Shown here: piece after piece, positions 1,595 through 50,000 of the stretch | Layout: each line of letters starts with the position of its first letter | Numbering within the stretch: the first letter of the stretch is position 1 | Source of the DNA: Candidatus Omnitrophota bacterium | GTDB taxonomy: Bacteria; Omnitrophota; Omnitrophia; Omnitrophales; Aquincolibacteriaceae | Length of the DNA stretch: 64,000 bases | Reading direction: 5' to 3' | NCBI GenBank assembly: GCA_041674705.1 | Contig: JBAYVF010000002.1 | Coordinates: 14,330-78,329 of the forward strand | Program-made: the position numbers and the translations under genes | Notes under the pieces: generated by a model | Told to the model about the DNA's origin: nothing | Seen by the model: the letters and a program-made list of their open reading frames with translations, nothing else | Databases searched by the model: none

Positions 1595-2203
1595 TTAGTT
1601 TAAAGCCCGTCCGTCGGTTCCCTTAGGGATTCTTTTAACTTTCTTGCTTACCCCGTCGTGTTCAATTTCAATGATGGCAAGATAGCCCTCTTTAACATTC
1701 AATGATTTCCAAAGGGGGAGATAGGGCTCGATTTCTTGGAAATTGCCGATCCTATCCGTCAGATAATGATACATTTTTCGCGACGGAAGCACCAAAACTC
1801 CGCCGATAAGAGTTCCCTTTAAAATTCCCAAGGCCATTTTATTCAGAGAGCGATGGCTTGATGAAATATTCCCAGTTTCCCATTCAAAACAAAATGATTT
1901 GTCCCGTACCGGGTATGTGGCATCTATAGGTCCTGGTCGACTCTCAGACGAGACCTTTTGGCGGGTTTCAAGATCCCATCCTCTGTCCTTCAGATATTTC
2001 ATGCAAAGCAGTTTAATGGGTTTGACGCCGTTTCCTTCGCCCCGCTTCTTTCCACACTGATCATGAAGAATGAATTTTTCTGATCCTTTAGGGTGTTCAA
2101 TCCGAAAAATGGACTCCTGAATGTCCTTTAAAATTTGTTTTAAGGACGCAGATTTTTTAAATCGTCCTTCACTTAGCAAAATGGTTGTTTGCAAAATTTT
2201 CAT
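1595..2203 (-). CDS. type II restriction endonuclease, BamHI family
   Basis: Aligns by eye with my recollection of R.BamHI: GNGVKPIKLLC, GPID, FEWETGNISSSHRSLNK (BamHI EFETGNISSAHRSMNK, containing the catalytic E-x-E), YLTDRIGNFQEIEPY, IPKGTDG. Needs a real alignment to confirm. Confidence 0.8.
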   Translation of the reverse strand: MKILQTTILLSEGRFKKSASLKQILKDIQESIFRIEHPKGSEKFILHDQCGKKRGEGNGVKPIKLLCMKYLKDRGWDLETRQKVSSESRPGPIDATYPVRDKSFCFEWETGNISSSHRSLNKMALGILKGTLIGGVLVLPSRKMYHYLTDRIGNFQEIEPYLPLWKSLNVKEGYLAIIEIEHDGVSKKVKRIPKGTDGRALN

Positions 2204-6627: not shown

Positions 6628-6753
6628 TTACCTTTATTCCAAGTCTGCAAGTCTCTCTCCGGATATTGTCACAACATTCAATAGCATCGATTTCCATAAT
6701 TTTTTCTAGGCCCTCAGTCTGCTCTAATGGAGCAAACTAACGGAGGGTATGAC

Positions 6754-8016
6754 ATGGAAATTAAATCAATCTCCATAACACAAATCAATCCAGCCCCGTA
6801 TAACCCGCGTGTGGACCTAAAGCCGGGTGATCCAGAATATGAGAAGTTAAAGCGAAGTATCGAAACCTTCGGCTATGTCGAACCCTTGGTCTGGAATGAG
6901 CGGACCGGCACGCTTGTGTCAGGGCACCAGCGGCTGAAGATCCTGAGGGAACAGGGCATCAAAACGGTCAAAGTGAGTGTTGTGGATCTGACAGTCGAGA
7001 GGGAGAAGGCTCTTAATATCGCTCTGAACAAGATCGAAGGCCGCTGGGAGGAGGATCTTTTATTGAACCTCCTTCAGGAACTAGAAGCGGTCCCTGATTT
7101 TGATGTGTCTTTCACAGGATTTGATCCGCCCGAGATCAGCAGCCTCATGGATGCATGTGCAGATACGCCGGAGGATGATTTCGATTTTGAAGCCGAACTG
7201 GGGAAGATCAAAAAGCCCGTTACCCGGAAAGGGGACCTAATTGAGCTAGTCGGGCATCGGATACTTTGCGGGGACTCTTCCTCCGAAGAGGCCCTAAAGA
7301 AGCTTGTTGGAACCAAAACGATCGAGCTAGTCCACACTGATCCTCCTTACAACGTCGATTATTACGGCGGGAATCGTCCCAAGAATTCAGTACGGGCGAA
7401 GCGGTCACAACACTGGGAACGGATCTGTTCGGACAATATGAGCCAGGCGGATTATGAGGCATGGCTGTCCAAGATCCTTCAGAACATGTCCAGTGTGCTT
7501 TCGAAAGGAGCGGCTGTATACATTTGGAACGGATATCGGCAGTTCGGGCCTATGCACCGCATGCTCGAATCGATCGGATTTCACGTGGCTTGCGTAATCA
7601 CGTGGGCGAAGCCGAATTTTGCGATTTCGTTCGCGGACTATAACCAGCAGACGGAATTCTGCCTTTACGGCTGGAAGCAGGAGAATGGGAAGCACCGCTG
7701 GTACGGCCCCACGAATGAGACGACGCTTTGGGAGGTCAAACGCGATCCCACGAAGGAGTACATCCATCCGACGCAAAAGCCCGTGGCTTTGGCTGCCCGC
7801 GCTATCAAGAACAGCTCCAAACGGGAGGACCATGTGTTGGACCTTTTCCTCGGGTCGGGTTCGACGCTCATTGCTGCAGAATCCTTAGGCCGCAGGTGTT
7901 TCGGGATCGAACTGGACCCCAAATACATCGATGCGATCGTCCGGCGCTACATTGCTTTTGCCGGAGAAAGCAAAGTCTCCAAAGACGTGTTGAAGCGTTA
8001 TCGGGAGGCGCGATGA
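6754..8016 (+). CDS. ParB-like nuclease domain fused to DNA methyltransferase (phage type)
   Basis: N-terminal ParB-N motifs (INPAPYNPR, GHQRLKIL). MTase motif IV HTDPPYN, HPTQKP and motif I LDLFLGSGST. Confidence 0.9.
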   Translation: MEIKSISITQINPAPYNPRVDLKPGDPEYEKLKRSIETFGYVEPLVWNERTGTLVSGHQRLKILREQGIKTVKVSVVDLTVEREKALNIALNKIEGRWEEDLLLNLLQELEAVPDFDVSFTGFDPPEISSLMDACADTPEDDFDFEAELGKIKKPVTRKGDLIELVGHRILCGDSSSEEALKKLVGTKTIELVHTDPPYNVDYYGGNRPKNSVRAKRSQHWERICSDNMSQADYEAWLSKILQNMSSVLSKGAAVYIWNGYRQFGPMHRMLESIGFHVACVITWAKPNFAISFADYNQQTEFCLYGWKQENGKHRWYGPTNETTLWEVKRDPTKEYIHPTQKPVALAARAIKNSSKREDHVLDLFLGSGSTLIAAESLGRRCFGIELDPKYIDAIVRRYIAFAGESKVSKDVLKRYREAR

Positions 8017-26009: not shown

Positions 26010-26065
26010 TCCACGGTCCACGCACCACGTTCCACGTGGTCCATGGATCGTGGCCCGTGGAGCGG
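26010..26065. repeat. heptamer-unit inverted repeat (4+4 units), possible terminator
   Basis: Starts on the base after the mnmA stop: tccacgg tccacgc accacgt tccacgt | ggtccat ggatcgt ggcccgt ggagcgg, centred on cacgtg. Confidence 0.8.
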
Positions 26066-29767: not shown

Positions 29768-32227
29768 ATGGCCAGCGGATTCAAACAGTATCCTTTCGAG
29801 ACAATAGAAAAAAAGTGGCAGACCTACTGGACTGACCATAAGACCTTCCGTTCTCCGGACCCCGGCGAGCCCGGCGGAGAAAAACAGAAATATTACGTCC
29901 TCGATATGTTCCCGTATCCTTCCGGTTCCGGTCTCCACGTCGGGCATTTGGAAGGGTATACCGCAACCGACATCGTCAGCCGCTATAAACGGATGTGCGG
30001 GTTCAATGTCCTGCATCCCATGGGTTGGGACGCGTTCGGGCTTCCCGCCGAGCAATATGCCATCGAGACCGGCACGCACCCCCGCGATACCACGAAAAAA
30101 AATATCCAGACCTTCAAGCGCCAGATCCAGCAGGTCGGTTTTAGCTATGACTGGGAACGCGAGATCGATACGACCGATCCCCATTATTACCGCTGGACGC
30201 AGTGGATCTTTATGAAGCTTTTCGAAAAAGGCTTGGCCTACGAATCCGAGATCCCGGTGTGGTGGTGCGATGGCTGCAAGGCCGTCCTTGCCAACGAAGA
30301 GGTGGACGCCAGCGGTACCTGTGAACGCAAGGGCCACAAGGATGTTTATCGCCGCCCGCTTCGTCAATGGATCCTCAGGATCACGGCCTATGCCGAACGG
30401 CTTTTAAAAGACCTCGACCTTCTGGATTGGTCGGAGCCCATCAAGGAAATGCAGCGTAACTGGATCGGGAAGTCCACCGGCGCGGAGGTGAAATTTCAAA
30501 TCTCAAATTTAAAATCTGAGATCTCTGTGTTCACCACACGACCGGACACGCTTTTCGGCGCGACGTATATGGTGCTGGCCCCGGAGCACGCGATGGTGGC
30601 AAAGATCACAACGCCGGAACAAAAGAAAGCCGTGGAAGCATATGTCGCCACCGCGACACACAAATCCGATCTCGATCGCACGGACCTCGCCAAAGAAAAG
30701 ACCGGTGTTTTTACCGGAGCTTATGCGATCAATCCCGTAAATGACAAAAAGATCCCGGTGTGGATCGCGGATTATGTGCTTATGGGTTACGGAACCGGCG
30801 CCATCATGGCAGTGCCGGGGCATGATACACGCGATCTTGAATTTGCGAAGGCTTACAAGCTTCCGATTGAAATTGTGGTGCAGGCACCCGAAGGGAAAGA
30901 ATCGTTGGGGTTTGTGGGGGACGGTGTCAGCGTGAATTCTGGGCTGATTACAGGCCTTCCTACGCCGGAAGCGAAACAAAAGATCACGAAATGGCTCGAA
31001 GAAAAGAAGATCGGGAAGGCAGCGGTTCAGTATAAGCTTCGGGACTGGCTTTTTAGTCGGCAACGTTATTGGGGGGAACCGATCCCGGTCGTGCATTGCG
31101 TGAAGTGCGGCCCGGTGCTTATTTCCGAGAACGAATTGCCGCTTAAGCTTCCTGAGATGAAAGATTACACACCGACCGGGAATGCCGAGCCGCCTCTTGC
31201 CAAGGCGAAGGATTGGCTGAAATGTAAATGCGCGAAATGCGGTGGCCCGGCCATGCGCGAAACGAACACCATGCCTCAATGGGCGGGTTCCTGTTGGTAT
31301 TATCTCCGCTACCTCGATCCGAAGAACGCGAAAGCAGCGGTCGATCCGAAAAAAGAAAAATACTGGATGAATGTGGATCTTTATGTCGGCGGCGCGGAAC
31401 ACGCGGTGCTTCATTTGCTCTATTCCCGGTTCTGGCACAAAGTGCTTTATGATATCGGAGTTGTTTCCACGCTTGAGCCATTCCAAAAACTCACGAACCA
31501 GGGCATGATCCTGGGCGAAGACAGCCAGAAGATGTCCAAGTCACGCGGCAATGTGGTGAATCCCGATGAGATGATCGCGCAATATGGCGCCGACAGCCTC
31601 CGGCTTTATGAAATGTTCATGGGCCCGCTGGAAATGACCAAGCCTTGGGCGAATTCCGGAGTGGAAGGCGTCTACCGGTTTCTCGGAAAAGTGTGGCGCC
31701 TCTTTATCGATAAGGACGACAAGCTTCACGCGAACATTGTTCAGCGCGAGCCGAATGCTTCGGAGCTCAAGACGCTCCACAAGGCAATCAAGAAAGTGAC
31801 GGAAGATTTTGAAGGCTTGCGATTTAATACGGCGATCTCGGCCTTGATGATTTTTATGAATGAGATAATGCCGGGAGAAGACCACTCGCGGGAAATCCTC
31901 GAAAAATTCCTGCTTCTTCTGGCGCCGCTCGCGCCCCATGTGGCGGAAGAATTATGGCAGCGCCTGGGTCACGCCAAGACGCTTGCGTATGAAAAATGGC
32001 CCGCGTATGATGACCAGTATCTCGTCGAAGATCAGGCGGAGATGGCTATTCTGGTGGGAGGTAAAGTACGTGCAAAAATGGTCGTTTCTCGTAGTGAGAA
32101 CAACGATGTGATCCAACAGATGTCGCTGGAACACCCCCGCGTGAAAGAGCTGCTCGTGGGGAAGGTCGTCAAGAAGGTGATCATCGTTCCGGGGCGCACG
32201 GTCAACCTTGTGGTGGTGGATGCCTAA
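29768..32227 (+). CDS. leuS: leucyl-tRNA synthetase
   Basis: 819 aa. HVGH (HIGH) motif, [17 protein letters not shown] motif. Confidence 0.97.
30491..30527. repeat. heptamer-unit element in-frame inside leuS
   Basis: aaatttc aaatctc aaattta aaatctg agatctc, encoding [12 protein letters not shown] in a variable LeuS loop. Shares a 22-mer (1 mismatch) with 47698-47719. Confidence 0.7.
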
Positions 32228-35591: not shown

Positions 35592-35686
35592 AGGAAACGG
35601 ACTTCGAATGGCGCCGCTTTCGAAATATCAAAACACCCTCCTTGTTTTTCTGCTCTTAGCGCTCGCCATCGTTATCGCTGTAAGAT

Positions 35687-35761
35687 GGTACTTGGTACAT
35701 AGTACATAGTACTTGGCGAAAAGCGGGGGTGACGGCTCGCCATGTACCATGTACTAAGTGC
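35687..35761. repeat. heptamer-unit inverted repeat (intergenic)
   Basis: ggtactt ggtacat agtacat agtactt gg ... ccatgtac catgtac taagtgc. The arms are imperfectly complementary. Confidence 0.75.
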
Positions 35762-45149: not shown

Positions 45150-45154
45150 CAATA

Positions 45155-45237
45155 GTAGGTAGTAGGTGGTATGTAGTATGTGGTAAGAAAAAATCGAGAT
45201 TGGTTTTGCTACCTACTACCTACCACTTACTACATAC
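45155..45237. repeat. heptamer-unit inverted repeat downstream of murJ stop
   Basis: gtaggta gtaggtg gtatgta gtatgtg gtaag ... ctaccta ctaccta ccactta ctacata c. Confidence 0.8.
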
Positions 45238-45254
45238 GCTTTTAGAAGGTTCTG

Positions 45255-46699: not shown

Positions 46700-46726
46700 C
46701 CATTCAAATACCCGGTATTTGAATGG
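46700..46726. terminator. perfect 11-bp hairpin 3 nt after the uvrC stop
   Basis: ccattcaaata cccgg tatttgaatgg. A partial second copy (tacccggtatttga) is at 46747-46760. Confidence 0.45.
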
Positions 46727-47021
46727 TGGAAAAGCCGCTTTTCAAGTACCCGGTATTTGATTGGGTGGAGCCAGGTTTCGAAGCCTGGTTCTAGGGGAGC
46801 GCTCTCGCAGCGAAGCAGATTTTCTGAATGTTATATCCTGCTATAAGTTGCTATTTGCTCCTTAGGACAATCTATAGCATTAGAAATCACCGAAAAGTCC
46901 TATTTCTAACCCAAAAATCACCCCATTTCGCAAAGAAAAATGAAGTTGTGCCCTTGCGGATACCTGAATATGTGTTACCTTTTCATAAGATTTTAATAAT
47001 AGAACGTTAAGGCCGAGGCAA

Positions 47022-50000
47022 ATGAACCCAAAAACATCTCTACACAAGGGGCTTTTTCCACGCTTTTCTCTCAAGGCGATCAGTCTGTTCACGGTGATCG
47101 TTTTCTTGTGTTCCGACTTCCTTGCCTTTCCTTCCCAGGCTCTGGCAAGCTCGGCAACAGCGGTTCCCGGAACAAATCCAAGTCCCAAGTCTGAGTGGGT
47201 CATTCCTTCCGAACTTGGGAAAATAGACAACGTCTATTTTCCGACTACAGACCAGAGACCACAGACCGCAGACTCCCTCTCCCATGGGGAGAGGGACGGG
47301 GTGAGGGGGAAAAGTCTCCGGTCTCCAGTCTCCGGTCTCCAGTCTCAAGCCCGCGGCAGCGGGCTTGTCGTGCTGATCCAAGACGCTCACAGCGTTCCGG
47401 ACGCTCAGCGGTCGCTTGAAAAACTGATCGAGTATCTCCAAGCGCAATATGGCGTCAAGACCGTGGCACTGGAGGGCGCGGAAGGGAAACTCGACCCCAC
47501 GCTTTTCCGCTTGTTCCCTGATTTGAAAAAACGCGAACAGATCTTTGCGGATTATTTAGCCAGCGGCGAACTTTCCGGCGCGGCGGCGGCCAGCGTGCTT
47601 TCTCCCTATAAATCGGATTACGTCGGGATCGAGGACTGGAAACTTTATCAGGAAGGCGTGGCAGCATTTCTGTCCGGCCTTAAGAAGCAGGCAGAGCTCA
47701 AATCTCAAATTTCAAATCTCAAAGAAGAGCTGCGGAATTTAAAACAAAAATACTATTCCAAAGAAGCGATGGAATTTGACGGAAAGCTCGGTGCGTGGAA
47801 TGAAAACCAGAATAACTTTCCCGAGTTTTTGAGCTATCTTGCCAAGTACTACGTACCAAGTACTAAGTACTCAGCGTATGGTGCATCGCACATGGCACTT
47901 GGCTCGCTATTCAATACGCTGGAGCAAGAGAGGAAATCCGATCCTCGGCTCGAATCGGAAGTCAAAAAACTCGCCAAGTATGCGCGCGAGATTGCGCCAA
48001 GCGCAAAGCTGAACGGCCTAGCCCAGGATTATCAAACCGGTCGTTTGTCTTCTGCGGCTTTCGCGTATGAGATCGCGGAACTTTTACGAAAAGTCGGTAA
48101 GCCGCTCCCGCAGGGCCAGCCGGATCTTCAAAAAATGATCGCCAATCATGCGTCTCTTATGAATGTAAAAGGTCCGGCGCTCATGAAGGAGCTCGAGGCG
48201 TTCCTGGAAGAGGTGCGTGCGCAACTTTTTATAACGCCGGAGGCAAAGACCGTTGCGGAGCTGGACAAGCAACTTCAGCGGCTGAGCAAACTTTCGAAGT
48301 TTGAATTGAGTCGCGATGAATGGCGATCGCTCCAGACTGGAGACCAGAGACTGGAGACCGGAGACTCCGAGCTCGTGAAATTTCAAGAAGATCTCGCCGT
48401 TGTTCTTTCGAGTTGTAGCGAGTTTATAAGATTTTACGAACTTGCCTTGAAGCGTGAAAATGTTTTTTCTGAAAGAGTCTCTAGTCTCTTGTCTCATGTC
48501 TCTAGTCCCGTTGCGGTTGTGGCCGGCGGCTTTCATACCGACGGCCTCGCGGCGAAGCTCAAAGAACAGGGGATTTCGTACGTGGTTGTTTCTCCGGCCA
48601 TGAAGGAAGTTCCGGCCGATAGCCGCTATTTCGACCAGATGCAGGGTAAGGTCTCCTGGCAGAAGTATTTCAGGCCGAAGGACGGGAAGATCGATCTTTA
48701 TGATGCGTTTGCCCGAGCAACTGTCGATCGTTTGTCTTCGCGCCGTACGCCGTACTCCGTACTCGGTCGCGAAGAAGGTACGGCGTACGGTGTACGGAGT
48801 ACGGAGTTAAAAGAGTGGCGTGACGAGGTGATCCGAAAATTAGCGACCGAAGGTCGCGTCGCAGAACACTCGAAATATACCCGCTTCATCGATCAACAAG
48901 CCGCCGGAAGTTCCGAAAAATTTCAAGCGCTTAAGGAAAAATGGACTGCGAAACTCGAGAAGTTTATCGGGAAACTCCAGTCCCTTGGGCAAAACAACCA
49001 GCTCACCGAAGCGAATATGGCGAAGCTCCTTTCCCAACCGGCGAACCAAACTCCTTACGCTGTTCCGTTTGTCCCGGGCGCGAGCGTGCCGGAGAGCTTT
49101 TTAGGGAATGCGGCCGAGAGGATAGAGGATAGTGAAAAACCAAACCCCAGTAAACGTTCCGAACTGCGGGATGAAAAGGGTGAGTCGTTTCCAGGCGAGA
49201 ATTCAGAGGCCGGCTTTGCTTCGGCAGCGCAAAATGATTTCAATGGAAAAAATAAGGAAAATTTTAAAAAAAGAAAAATCTTCAGTCCGTTTAGTCCATT
49301 ATTTCTTTGCGTCGGATTTTTGAGTGTTTTTTTATTCGTCCTTTCGGGTTTTGGAAGTATTGCTCGTGAACCACTTCAAACGCCTGCTTCTGCTACGACC
49401 CAATCTCTTGAGAGTGGTGTGTCTCGTACGCGCGTTGCCTCGAAATTCGTAAAAGGACCCGAAGGATGGCAGTTTTATTTAAACGGAAAAAAGTCTCCCG
49501 CTCCTTTCGGAATTGTTTACCAGCCGGTACCCCCGGGCAAGCATATCGATAATTACCGTAATAATTTTGGAAAACTCTATCGATATTTGCTTGATCCCGA
49601 GGAAGGAGGACTGGGGCATGCGAAGGCCCTGAATCGTCTTGGAATAAAATCAATCAGGGTTTACGACCTTCCTTCGGAGGATGAGGCGGATATTGAAGCG
49701 GTAAAAAATATTTTTAGAAAGGTTTACGCCCAATATGGCATCCGCGTGTTTGTAGGTAATTATGCCGGAATGTACTTTGGTTTTGATTATAAAAAAGCGG
49801 CGGATCGCGAGAAGATCAAAAAGCAGGTTGTGAAAACGGTGGCTACCTACTGCGATGAATCGTGGATTTTAGGATGGCAGATAGGCAATGAGAACAATTA
49901 CTATGTGAACGGTGGGTTGTTTGCCCAACGGATCAACCTTTCTCTGGAAGAATACTACTCCTTTATGGATGAATTAGCGTTAAGCATTCGGAAAAATCTG

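Follow-up and report, generated by a model that had tools for sequence, protein, structure and literature searches.

The question raised by this locus is why a very long gene of a Candidatus Omnitrophota bacterium begins with a series of in-frame tandem arrays whose repeat unit is seven nucleotides in length. The stretch analyzed here (GCA_041674705.1, contig JBAYVF010000002.1, positions 14,330 to 78,329; 64,000 nucleotides, called the window throughout) contains a giant open reading frame (ORF) that starts with an ATG at 47022 on the + strand and stays open up to the window end (64000), a length of no fewer than 5,659 codons. A longer ENA contig (ERZ27247358 k141_638595; 180,783 bp) contains the window sequence without differences, and the giant gene is called there as 11,506 amino acids (aa). 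We put at about one in two the probability that the arrays are self-homogenising heptanucleotide repeats acting as slippage-driven frameshift (phase-variation) switches. The combination of a 7-nt periodicity, solitary arrays, an extreme 5' bias and alleles differing by one unit fits slippage-prone, self-homogenising switches of this kind.

Arrays were located by Tandem Repeats Finder (TRF) together with a period scan of our own. The 64-kb window holds 15 period-7 arrays and none with a period of 3–6, 8 or 10–12 nucleotides, and the mean in Markov-shuffled sequence is 0.33; the period-7 count is therefore far beyond chance. Eight of these arrays, at six loci, lie in frame at codons 76–596 of the giant ORF, and three of the loci are inverted pairs with strong predicted stems. 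The six loci that a first-pass annotation had placed in the first part of this ORF were recovered by TRF and the period scan, and all of the odd peptides it had quoted are present in the ORF translation over the same codons. The sites labelled E, H and I are inverted pairs, and site F has no partner arm. Site G (47842–47871, + strand) is self-complementary, being made of GTACNNN units with a GTAC core (peptide KYYVPSTKYS), and a homologous palindromic GTACCAA/TTGGTAC array is found at this site in orthologue L005. Site H consists of a left arm (48334–48367, + strand; 4.6 units of AGACYRG, peptide LQTGDQRLETGDS) and a right arm (48475–48507, + strand; 4.6 units of AGTCTCT, peptide RVSSLLSHVSS).

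Comparison was made with 17 non-redundant orthologous Omnitrophota loci of 45–61% protein identity (parts of genomes, not whole genomes), with arrays placed on the window protein by tblastn. In one orthologous species, unit number at sites G and H differs among five assemblies. Three of them (L013, L085 and L090) possess 4 units at G (AGTACGG) and 4 at H-left (GTACGGA), and their ORF is open. By contrast, L001 possesses 4 units at G and 3 at H-left, with a stop at aa 460, and L089 possesses 3 units at G and 4 at H-left, with a stop at aa 280. No other difference exists between L001 and L013 over 21,387 nt, or between L089 and L013 over 8,843 nt. Given that the arrays (27–30 nt) are far shorter than assembly k-mers, the unit differences must come from reads. 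The earlier suggestion that changes in unit number could shift the frame is thus borne out in an orthologous species, where single-unit losses at G or H-left truncate the product to 280 or 460 aa. For the window organism a single assembly covers these arrays, so that the unit-number alleles are those of the orthologous species; a search for further strains of the window species returned the source contig and one 3.7-kb Logan contig only, the latter ending before the giant gene, and no relative above 61% identity came up in a metagenome scan.

In the window and in 14 of the 17 orthologues the ORF runs uninterrupted past every array, indicating that the frame is under selection. The three broken orthologue ORFs are that of L001, through unit loss, and those of L034 and L011, through simple nonsense codons away from the arrays. 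In a second species, a poly-G tract is located at about codon 864 of the giant gene (L091:6592-6602), with G11 in L091 (P0013) and an inferred G9 in P0001; neither length keeps the frame, which G10 would, and this tract is the only homopolymer of at least 9 nt in all orthologue loci. Frameshifts in L002/P0007 were dismissed as alleles and taken as errors of a 1.97x long-read contig. In the two frameshifted assemblies L001 and L089, gene calling yields a further predicted ORF, longer than 9,000 aa, that begins just past the break (L001:11323-21383, L089:4891-8843). The 1,589-nt contigs of P0012 (434 aa), which belongs to the species of P0001, stop precisely at ...KFELSRAE, immediately ahead of the H-left array, which looks like an assembly break at a polymorphic array.

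How such arrays could act can be outlined as follows. Because the unit of 7 is no multiple of 3, replication slippage of one or two units would shift the frame; when insertions or deletions of 7 or 14 nt were simulated at each of nine window arrays, a stop was reached within 0–65 codons and products of 91–764 aa resulted. An off state would thus be set right at the beginning of the gene, a position at which termination would spare nearly the whole cost of the 11,506-aa product, and slippage in the opposite direction would bring the frame back. The same cycles of slippage would homogenise the units. The inverted partner arm probably either promotes misalignment or stays complementary through template switching within the hairpin. 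Inverted repeats beside direct repeats stimulate misalignment in E. coli, and quasi-palindromes are corrected there by intramolecular template switching, a process that would account for a strand-symmetric covariation of arms. Together, the arrays would form a multi-site contingency region of a very costly, probably surface-exposed protein, and the intergenic members followed by T-runs are more likely to be terminator or 3'-end hairpins.

Arrays of this class are not confined to the window. Period 7 accounts for 146 arrays in 1.21 Mb of related loci, compared with 28 for period 6 and 12 for period 8. The class is lineage-specific to a clade of Omnitrophota, and its members are short (median 3.7 units), mostly imperfect, and about half of them belong to inverted pairs able to form stems of 15–30 bp. 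Nearly all 17 orthologues have arrays at shared places, with a unit that differs by genome: the spacer between MurJ and UvrC upstream of the giant gene and about nine sites within its first ~720 codons, which in residues of the window protein are ~3, 44–56, 80–113 (E), 230 (F), 276–290 (G), 439–444 and 490–498 (H), 576–597 (I), and 686–710 (J). The last of these (49117–49132, + strand; AGAGGAT x2.3, in frame at codons 699–704) sits in the disordered tail of the N-terminal module, outside the range of the first-pass annotation, and has counterparts at the same place in L009, L015, L078 and L080.

Replacement of units is most evident at site H, where the left and right arms read AGACYRG and AGTCTCT in the window, GTACGGA and CCGTACA in L001, CGGGGAA and CGTTTCC in L004, GCGCAAC and GCGTTGC in L007, GCCACGN and CGTGGNC in L008, and CGGATGG and CATCCTY in L009. 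The two arms, 79% complementary over 33 nt in the window, are 107 nt apart across a protein segment that is conserved in orthologues, as the earlier description of arms at 48333 and 48475 around 107 nt of normal-looking coding sequence had it. Duplexes between cognate arms are more stable than those between non-cognate arms at H (−57.8 versus −43.5 kcal/mol), E (−35.1 versus −24.4 kcal/mol) and I (−24.2 versus −17.7 kcal/mol), and the covariation of arms has a permutation p<5e-5 at each of the three sites among 16–17 orthologues. The units within an array change as one, as do the two arms of a pair, and in some lineages the arrays have decayed below detection. The periodicity is kept in the orthologues and the encoded peptides are not, the opposite of peptides conserved at the amino-acid level with loss of the nucleotide periodicity.

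Covarying arms raise the possibility that RNA structure is what matters. All structures described here are predictions, with RNA folds scored against dinucleotide shuffles. At site E, the left arm (47243–47273, + strand; ~4.4 units of AGACCNN at codons ~75–84, peptide TTDQRPQTAD) pairs in the predicted fold with the right arm (47313–47346, + strand; 4.9 units of GTCTCCN with a 14-nt period that is 100% perfect, peptide LRSPVSGLQS), giving −52.3 kcal/mol and z −2.9. The nested palindrome noticed earlier at this locus (then given as 47248) is real: TCCCTCTCCC-ATG-GGGAGAGGGA (47274–47296, + strand) lies in the loop of E with a 10-bp stem and a 3-nt loop (−19.4 kcal/mol, z −3.1), and, as read from the sequence, a degenerate G-rich stretch of period 7 comes after it, GGGGAGA GGGACGG GGTGAGG GGGAAAA, which resembles the CGGGGAA arrays found at site E of L004, L015 and L079. 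The GC hairpin directly 3' of E (47346–47367, + strand; non-heptameric, −18.3 kcal/mol, z −4.2) is real as well, but has 9 bp instead of the 8 first counted. Site I pairs a left arm of CCGTACN units (48741–48767, + strand; peptide RRTPYSVLG) with a right arm of GTACGGN units (48778–48807, + strand; peptide GTAYGVRSTE), with a predicted fold of −41.1 kcal/mol (z −4.5), and the fold of H, with the 107 nt of coding sequence in its loop, reaches −72.9 kcal/mol (z −5.2). The long stems proposed from the sequence at first sight are therefore strongly predicted at E, H and I (z −2.9 to −5.2), with arms that covary between orthologues; site G folds more weakly (−11.5 kcal/mol, z −2.2). Over all loci fetched, an inverted partner (at least 75% match, within 300 nt) is present for 70 of 160 arrays, and a shuffled query gave none.

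An RNA-level role would have stem-loops within the first 2 kb of the giant transcript selected for their effect on early elongation, transcription-translation coupling, RNase access or transcript stability, with the periodicity as a by-product that allows several pairing registers. We regard this as unlikely, albeit the likeliest of the alternatives. It draws on the strength of the predicted stems (z −2.9 to −5.7 with the intergenic hairpin described below), on the arm covariation at three sites in 16–17 orthologues, on intergenic members that directly follow stop codons and precede T-runs in the manner of terminators or 3' stabilisers, and on the transcript-stabilising role proposed for the 7-bp hairpins of cyanobacterial short tandemly repeated repetitive (STRR) sequences (PMC2670836). 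However, no strand asymmetry was found when 48 arm pairs were folded both ways (sense −27.3 versus antisense −27.5 kcal/mol, Wilcoxon p=0.96) or when their G.U pairs were counted (62 sense versus 67 antisense), and equal stability and equal counts leave nothing that marks the stems as sense-RNA elements. The conserved sites F and J, as well as G in some of the genomes, hold arrays without a partner, and a hairpin does not need tandem periodicity. Ribosomes would, in addition, unwind stems inside an ORF. The Rfam 15 covariance models matched only two tRNAs and, below threshold, two chance sequences in window 25000–50000, so that no family fits the arrays, and promoter and terminator scans returned nothing of relevance, with no terminator-like signal within the giant ORF.

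In two orthologues, an AGACC-type array begins at codon 3 in place of the usual N-terminal residues (L012:9992-10017, L015:9990-10013), with a complementary arm ~157 nt downstream, past the signal-peptide region. Sequestration of the start codon by the arm over codons 3–10 was considered for L015 and L012 and rejected, since the predicted fold of L015 leaves the start-proximal arm unused (z −1.3), a result that also counts against selection for RNA stems.

The distribution of arrays along the genes bears on a neutral explanation. In the window and the 17 orthologues together, array density per 10 kb is 20.9 over the first 2.3 kb of the giant ORFs and 1.2 in the upstream genes, compared with 0.08 in the rest of the giant ORFs (1 array in 118 kb). 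Among ~60 distant homologues and paralogues of 23–39% identity, the corresponding values are 3.12 for the first 2.3 kb, 0.34 upstream and 0.15 for the rest of the ORF, and their arrays include the same unit families (GTACGGA, CGGGGAA, AGACC/GTCTC and CCACG). Since the 5' excess extends to this distant set, the link to the 5' module of giant genes is general in this group. In the AlphaFold model of the module (mean pLDDT only 59.7, and below 50 at residues 77–112, 281–287 and 529–596), sites E, G, H-left, I and J are loops or disordered segments and site F is part of a long helix predicted with confidence. Loop tolerance is not by itself an explanation for the link of arrays to the 5' module.

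A mutational bias toward 7-nt duplication combined with template-switched inverted copies could nevertheless let functionless arrays pile up wherever they are tolerated, which we consider rather improbable, next below selection for RNA stems. Work cited in PMC4692102 and PMC4679880 ranks heptanucleotides first among the over-represented long simple repeats of many bacteria and proposes polymerase slippage as the cause, and the arrays in spacers and in LeuRS, together with the predicted loops or disordered segments that hold most in-gene arrays, are as this explanation would have them. But arrays are ~250-fold denser in the first 2.3 kb than in the other 118 kb of these ORFs, where poorly conserved linkers occur too, the excess persists in paralogues of ~30% identity, and the periodicity is kept at the same sites among orthologues of 45–60% identity.

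The vocabulary of units is another feature to be explained. Among 160 arrays there are 88 distinct consensus units, which are locus-specific with no shared consensus element, and a small set (GTACGGA, GCGCAAC, CGGGGAA, CCACGNG and AGACCNN) recurs across loci and genomes. Avoidance of stop codons was rejected as the source of this small vocabulary, because 592 of 1,172 canonical heptamers are stop-free in six frames and the constraint is too weak; single-linkage clustering of the units merged nearly all of them in one cluster and was uninformative. Sites E and H are often built from one unit family per genome (window, L001, L004, L008, L009 and L079), so E-left could also pair with H-right ~1.2 kb away, and exchange may take place between arrays of one genome. 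Turnover, to judge from one spacer, can be abrupt. The hairpin between MurJ and UvrC is AGGATGG/CCATCCN in L088 (1560–1790, minus strand) and TAGTAGG/CTACCTA at window 45150–45254, with MurJ 96% identical; homology ends about five bases before the MurJ stop codon and resumes only inside the UvrC start, and a T-run comes after each hairpin.

The recurring vocabulary, the joint replacement of arms more than 100 nt apart and the exchange of a whole hairpin beside a flanking gene of 96% identity are the grounds for a more speculative proposal, in which heptamer hairpin cassettes are actively written or replaced in a site-directed manner as a self-renewing structured micro-element that would be targeted to the 5' control region of the largest bacterial genes known and would govern their expression. 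We hold this to be improbable, behind neutral accumulation.

The first-pass annotation likened the arrays to in-frame palindromic insertions, the Rickettsia palindromic elements (RPEs), and the orthologue comparison goes against insertion. RPEs are copies of consensus families of 100–150 bp, true insertions that are translated in frame within genes. The arrays share with them a palindromic sequence that is translated in frame and adds peptide segments at tolerant places, but they are tandem and heptameric and lack a consensus, and orthologues that carry an array do not differ in length from those lacking one. Arrays are homologous at the same sites and evolve in concert with no length difference, the correlation of segment length with array content being nil (Spearman −0.01). 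Site F (47697–47723, + strand; 3.9 units of CTCAAAT, peptide LKSQISNLK), which is solitary and has no fold and no partner arm, is 88 nt in 17 of 17 orthologues whether or not an array is detectable. Its 70% consensus over 17 sequences is.C.GAG.TCAA..C.CA.....CAA..CTCAA.G..GA.CT, with a TCAA core every 7 nt in most of the 17 orthologues and three other bases that change in concert (ATC/ATT in one group, CGC in another and NGT in L009). A core that is kept while the intervening bases change together indicates homology among the arrays of a site and their concerted evolution.

Miniature elements like RPEs, miniature inverted-repeat transposable elements (MITEs) or REPINs, inserted in frame and occasionally swapped, are thus very improbable as the origin of the arrays. 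Such elements would suit the reappearance of a few unit families from site to site, from genome to genome and in paralogues, as well as the wholesale swap of the MurJ-UvrC hairpin between the window and L088. However, arrays at F, G and H-left are present or absent with no length difference, the arms of H stand 107–170 nt apart across conserved coding sequence, and at F most of the 17 orthologues keep the phase of the core. Inspection by eye, no systematic search having been made, showed neither conserved termini nor target duplications, and there is no transposase (Y1 included), RAYT or reverse transcriptase among the window genes examined. The arrays also differ from repetitive extragenic palindromic (REP) sequences and REPINs in that six loci are intragenic and no consensus is shared, and no Y1 transposase is found among the window genes scanned. 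Least probable of all is protein diversification, in which exposed loops of the N-terminal module would be varied by in-frame three-unit changes and unit replacement for antigenic or host-range purposes: although the peptides at the same loops are wholly different between orthologues and the module sits behind a signal/transmembrane (TM) segment, the natural changes are single units that destroy the frame, inverted pairing and intergenic members have no protein-level rationale, and F lies in a conserved helix.

Several points weigh against frameshift switches as well. Only 12 of 91 arrays have at least three identical consecutive units, unlike the long perfect tracts of contingency loci; the arrays of the window are imperfect, except for the perfect 14-nt period of E-right, and both of the observed unit losses are in perfect arrays. 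The evidence from alleles comes from orthologues, with the window organism itself represented by one assembly, and reversal of a unit change is not among the alleles observed. A sixth assembly of the species that provided the alleles (P0009) is truncated through a single-base deletion outside any array, so loss-of-function alleles may simply be common. Pairing is the feature that a switch explains least well: a frameshift switch needs no partner arm, and the covariation of arms is not explained by the switch itself. The intergenic members and the LeuRS array cannot be frameshift switches, and the small shared vocabulary of units is unexplained by them.

Known repeats offer partial parallels, the nearest described sequences being cyanobacterial STRR hairpins and the heptamers of Xanthomonas, Nostoc and Beggiatoaceae. 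The STRR sequences of heterocystous cyanobacteria are 7-bp tandem units, often hairpin-capable, for example in the hupS-hupL and nif intergenic regions (PMC2670836). The likeness lies in the tandem 7-bp units and the hairpin potential, and three members of the window (26010, 35686 and 45153) are intergenic, the six loci of the giant ORF being intragenic. The differences are that the phylum is another, that the window arrays are mainly inside an ORF, in frame and concentrated in the first 2.3 kb of giant genes, and that over 100 nt of conserved coding sequence may separate the two arms. The STRR units CCCCAGT, TTGGTCA and CAACAGT are never in tandem in the window. A cyanobacterial origin was considered because of a HIP1 site adjoining H-left and rejected, as the HIP1 octamer is not enriched (3 versus 2.1 expected) and the relatives are all Omnitrophota.

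Simple-sequence contingency loci are the closest functional parallel to the proposed switches, and include the CTCTT repeats of Neisseria opa genes (in the signal-peptide region), the tetranucleotide repeats of Haemophilus and the poly-G tracts of Campylobacter. Heptameric repeats are found at HMW of H. influenzae (PMC12721329). The Omnitrophota arrays resemble contingency loci in a unit not divisible by 3, a position at the 5' end of the gene, a probable surface protein and frame-breaking unit-number alleles, and one orthologue has a classical poly-G tract in the same region. They differ in having 3–5 units that are mostly interrupted, many arrays per gene instead of one, and inverted pairs in about half of the cases. 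The heptameric repeats GGGAATC of Xanthomonas, GGGGAYT of Nostoc and TAACTGA of Beggiatoaceae show a genome-wide excess of 7-nt repeats with some inverted pairs, and vary in length and sequence between close relatives at the same intergenic positions (PMC4692102; PMC4679880). Those repeats, however, use essentially one unit and are nearly all intergenic, whereas the Omnitrophota unit depends on the locus and the hot spot is coding. The arrays are set off from the STRR and other heptamers and from phase-variation repeats by their phylum, their in-frame location, the many arrays at conserved sites and the locus-specific arms that change together.

Omnitrophota giant genes encode some of the longest known proteins, and the arrays offer a testable hypothesis for the control of their expression. 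If frameshift switching is true, costly and probably host- or prey-facing proteins would be switched on and off stochastically, and some of the "split" giant genes in metagenome assemblies may be off-state alleles, not assembly errors. The two arms of a hairpin evolving in concert across conserved coding sequence are an unusually clean case, bearing on how tandem repeats and quasi-palindromes become homogenised, and the long-unexplained excess of heptanucleotides in bacteria is extended to a new phylum and to coding regions.

As for the host gene, its product consists of an N-terminal signal/TM segment followed by a ~720-aa module and then by GT2, methyltransferase, PALP, transglutaminase and ATP-grasp domains. 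This domain make-up, together with the fact that every homologue of the N-terminal module comes from Omnitrophota metagenome-assembled genomes, identifies it as one of the giant multi-enzyme genes of Omnitrophota (10.1101/2023.11.21.568195). Heptamers, hairpins and frameshifts are unmentioned in the Omnitrophota giant-gene literature examined, which includes that study. The module (47022–49181) has no sequence match in Pfam or the PDB, and its AlphaFold model has no fold match. In homologue P0006 a sub-threshold match to the ChaN/Tiki haem-binding family surrounds a conserved GGFH motif of the module.

The intergenic members of the window are three hairpins. One occupies the MurJ-UvrC spacer (45153–45237, + strand; TAGTAGG/CTACCTA followed by TTTT; −38.9 kcal/mol, z −5.7), where hairpins built of other units are found in L001, L002, L003, L004, L034 and L078. 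Another stands directly after the stop codon of MnmA (26010–26062, + strand; TCCACGN/NCGTGGN, −30.3 kcal/mol, z −2.4), and the last lies upstream of ComEC (35686–35754, + strand; TGGTACN...CCATGTA, −30.7 kcal/mol, z −3.7). An inverted repeat, CCGTCCCAAT...ATTGGGACGG, is conserved between UvrC and the giant gene in L078 (5882–5965), L034 and L012, and was not seen in the window upstream of the giant gene (46700–47021).

A weak solitary array with no fold is present inside the LeuRS gene (30491–30525, + strand; AAATCTC-type, codons 242–253). It lies at the start of the editing domain, and its translation, QISNLKS, matches the heptad seen at site F of the giant gene; against E. coli LeuRS there seems to be no change in length. 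Elsewhere in the window, a gene for a BamHI-family restriction endonuclease (1595–2203, minus strand) adjoins a gene for an HTH-N4/N6 DNA methylase (461–1594), and a second methylase gene is located at 6727–8016.

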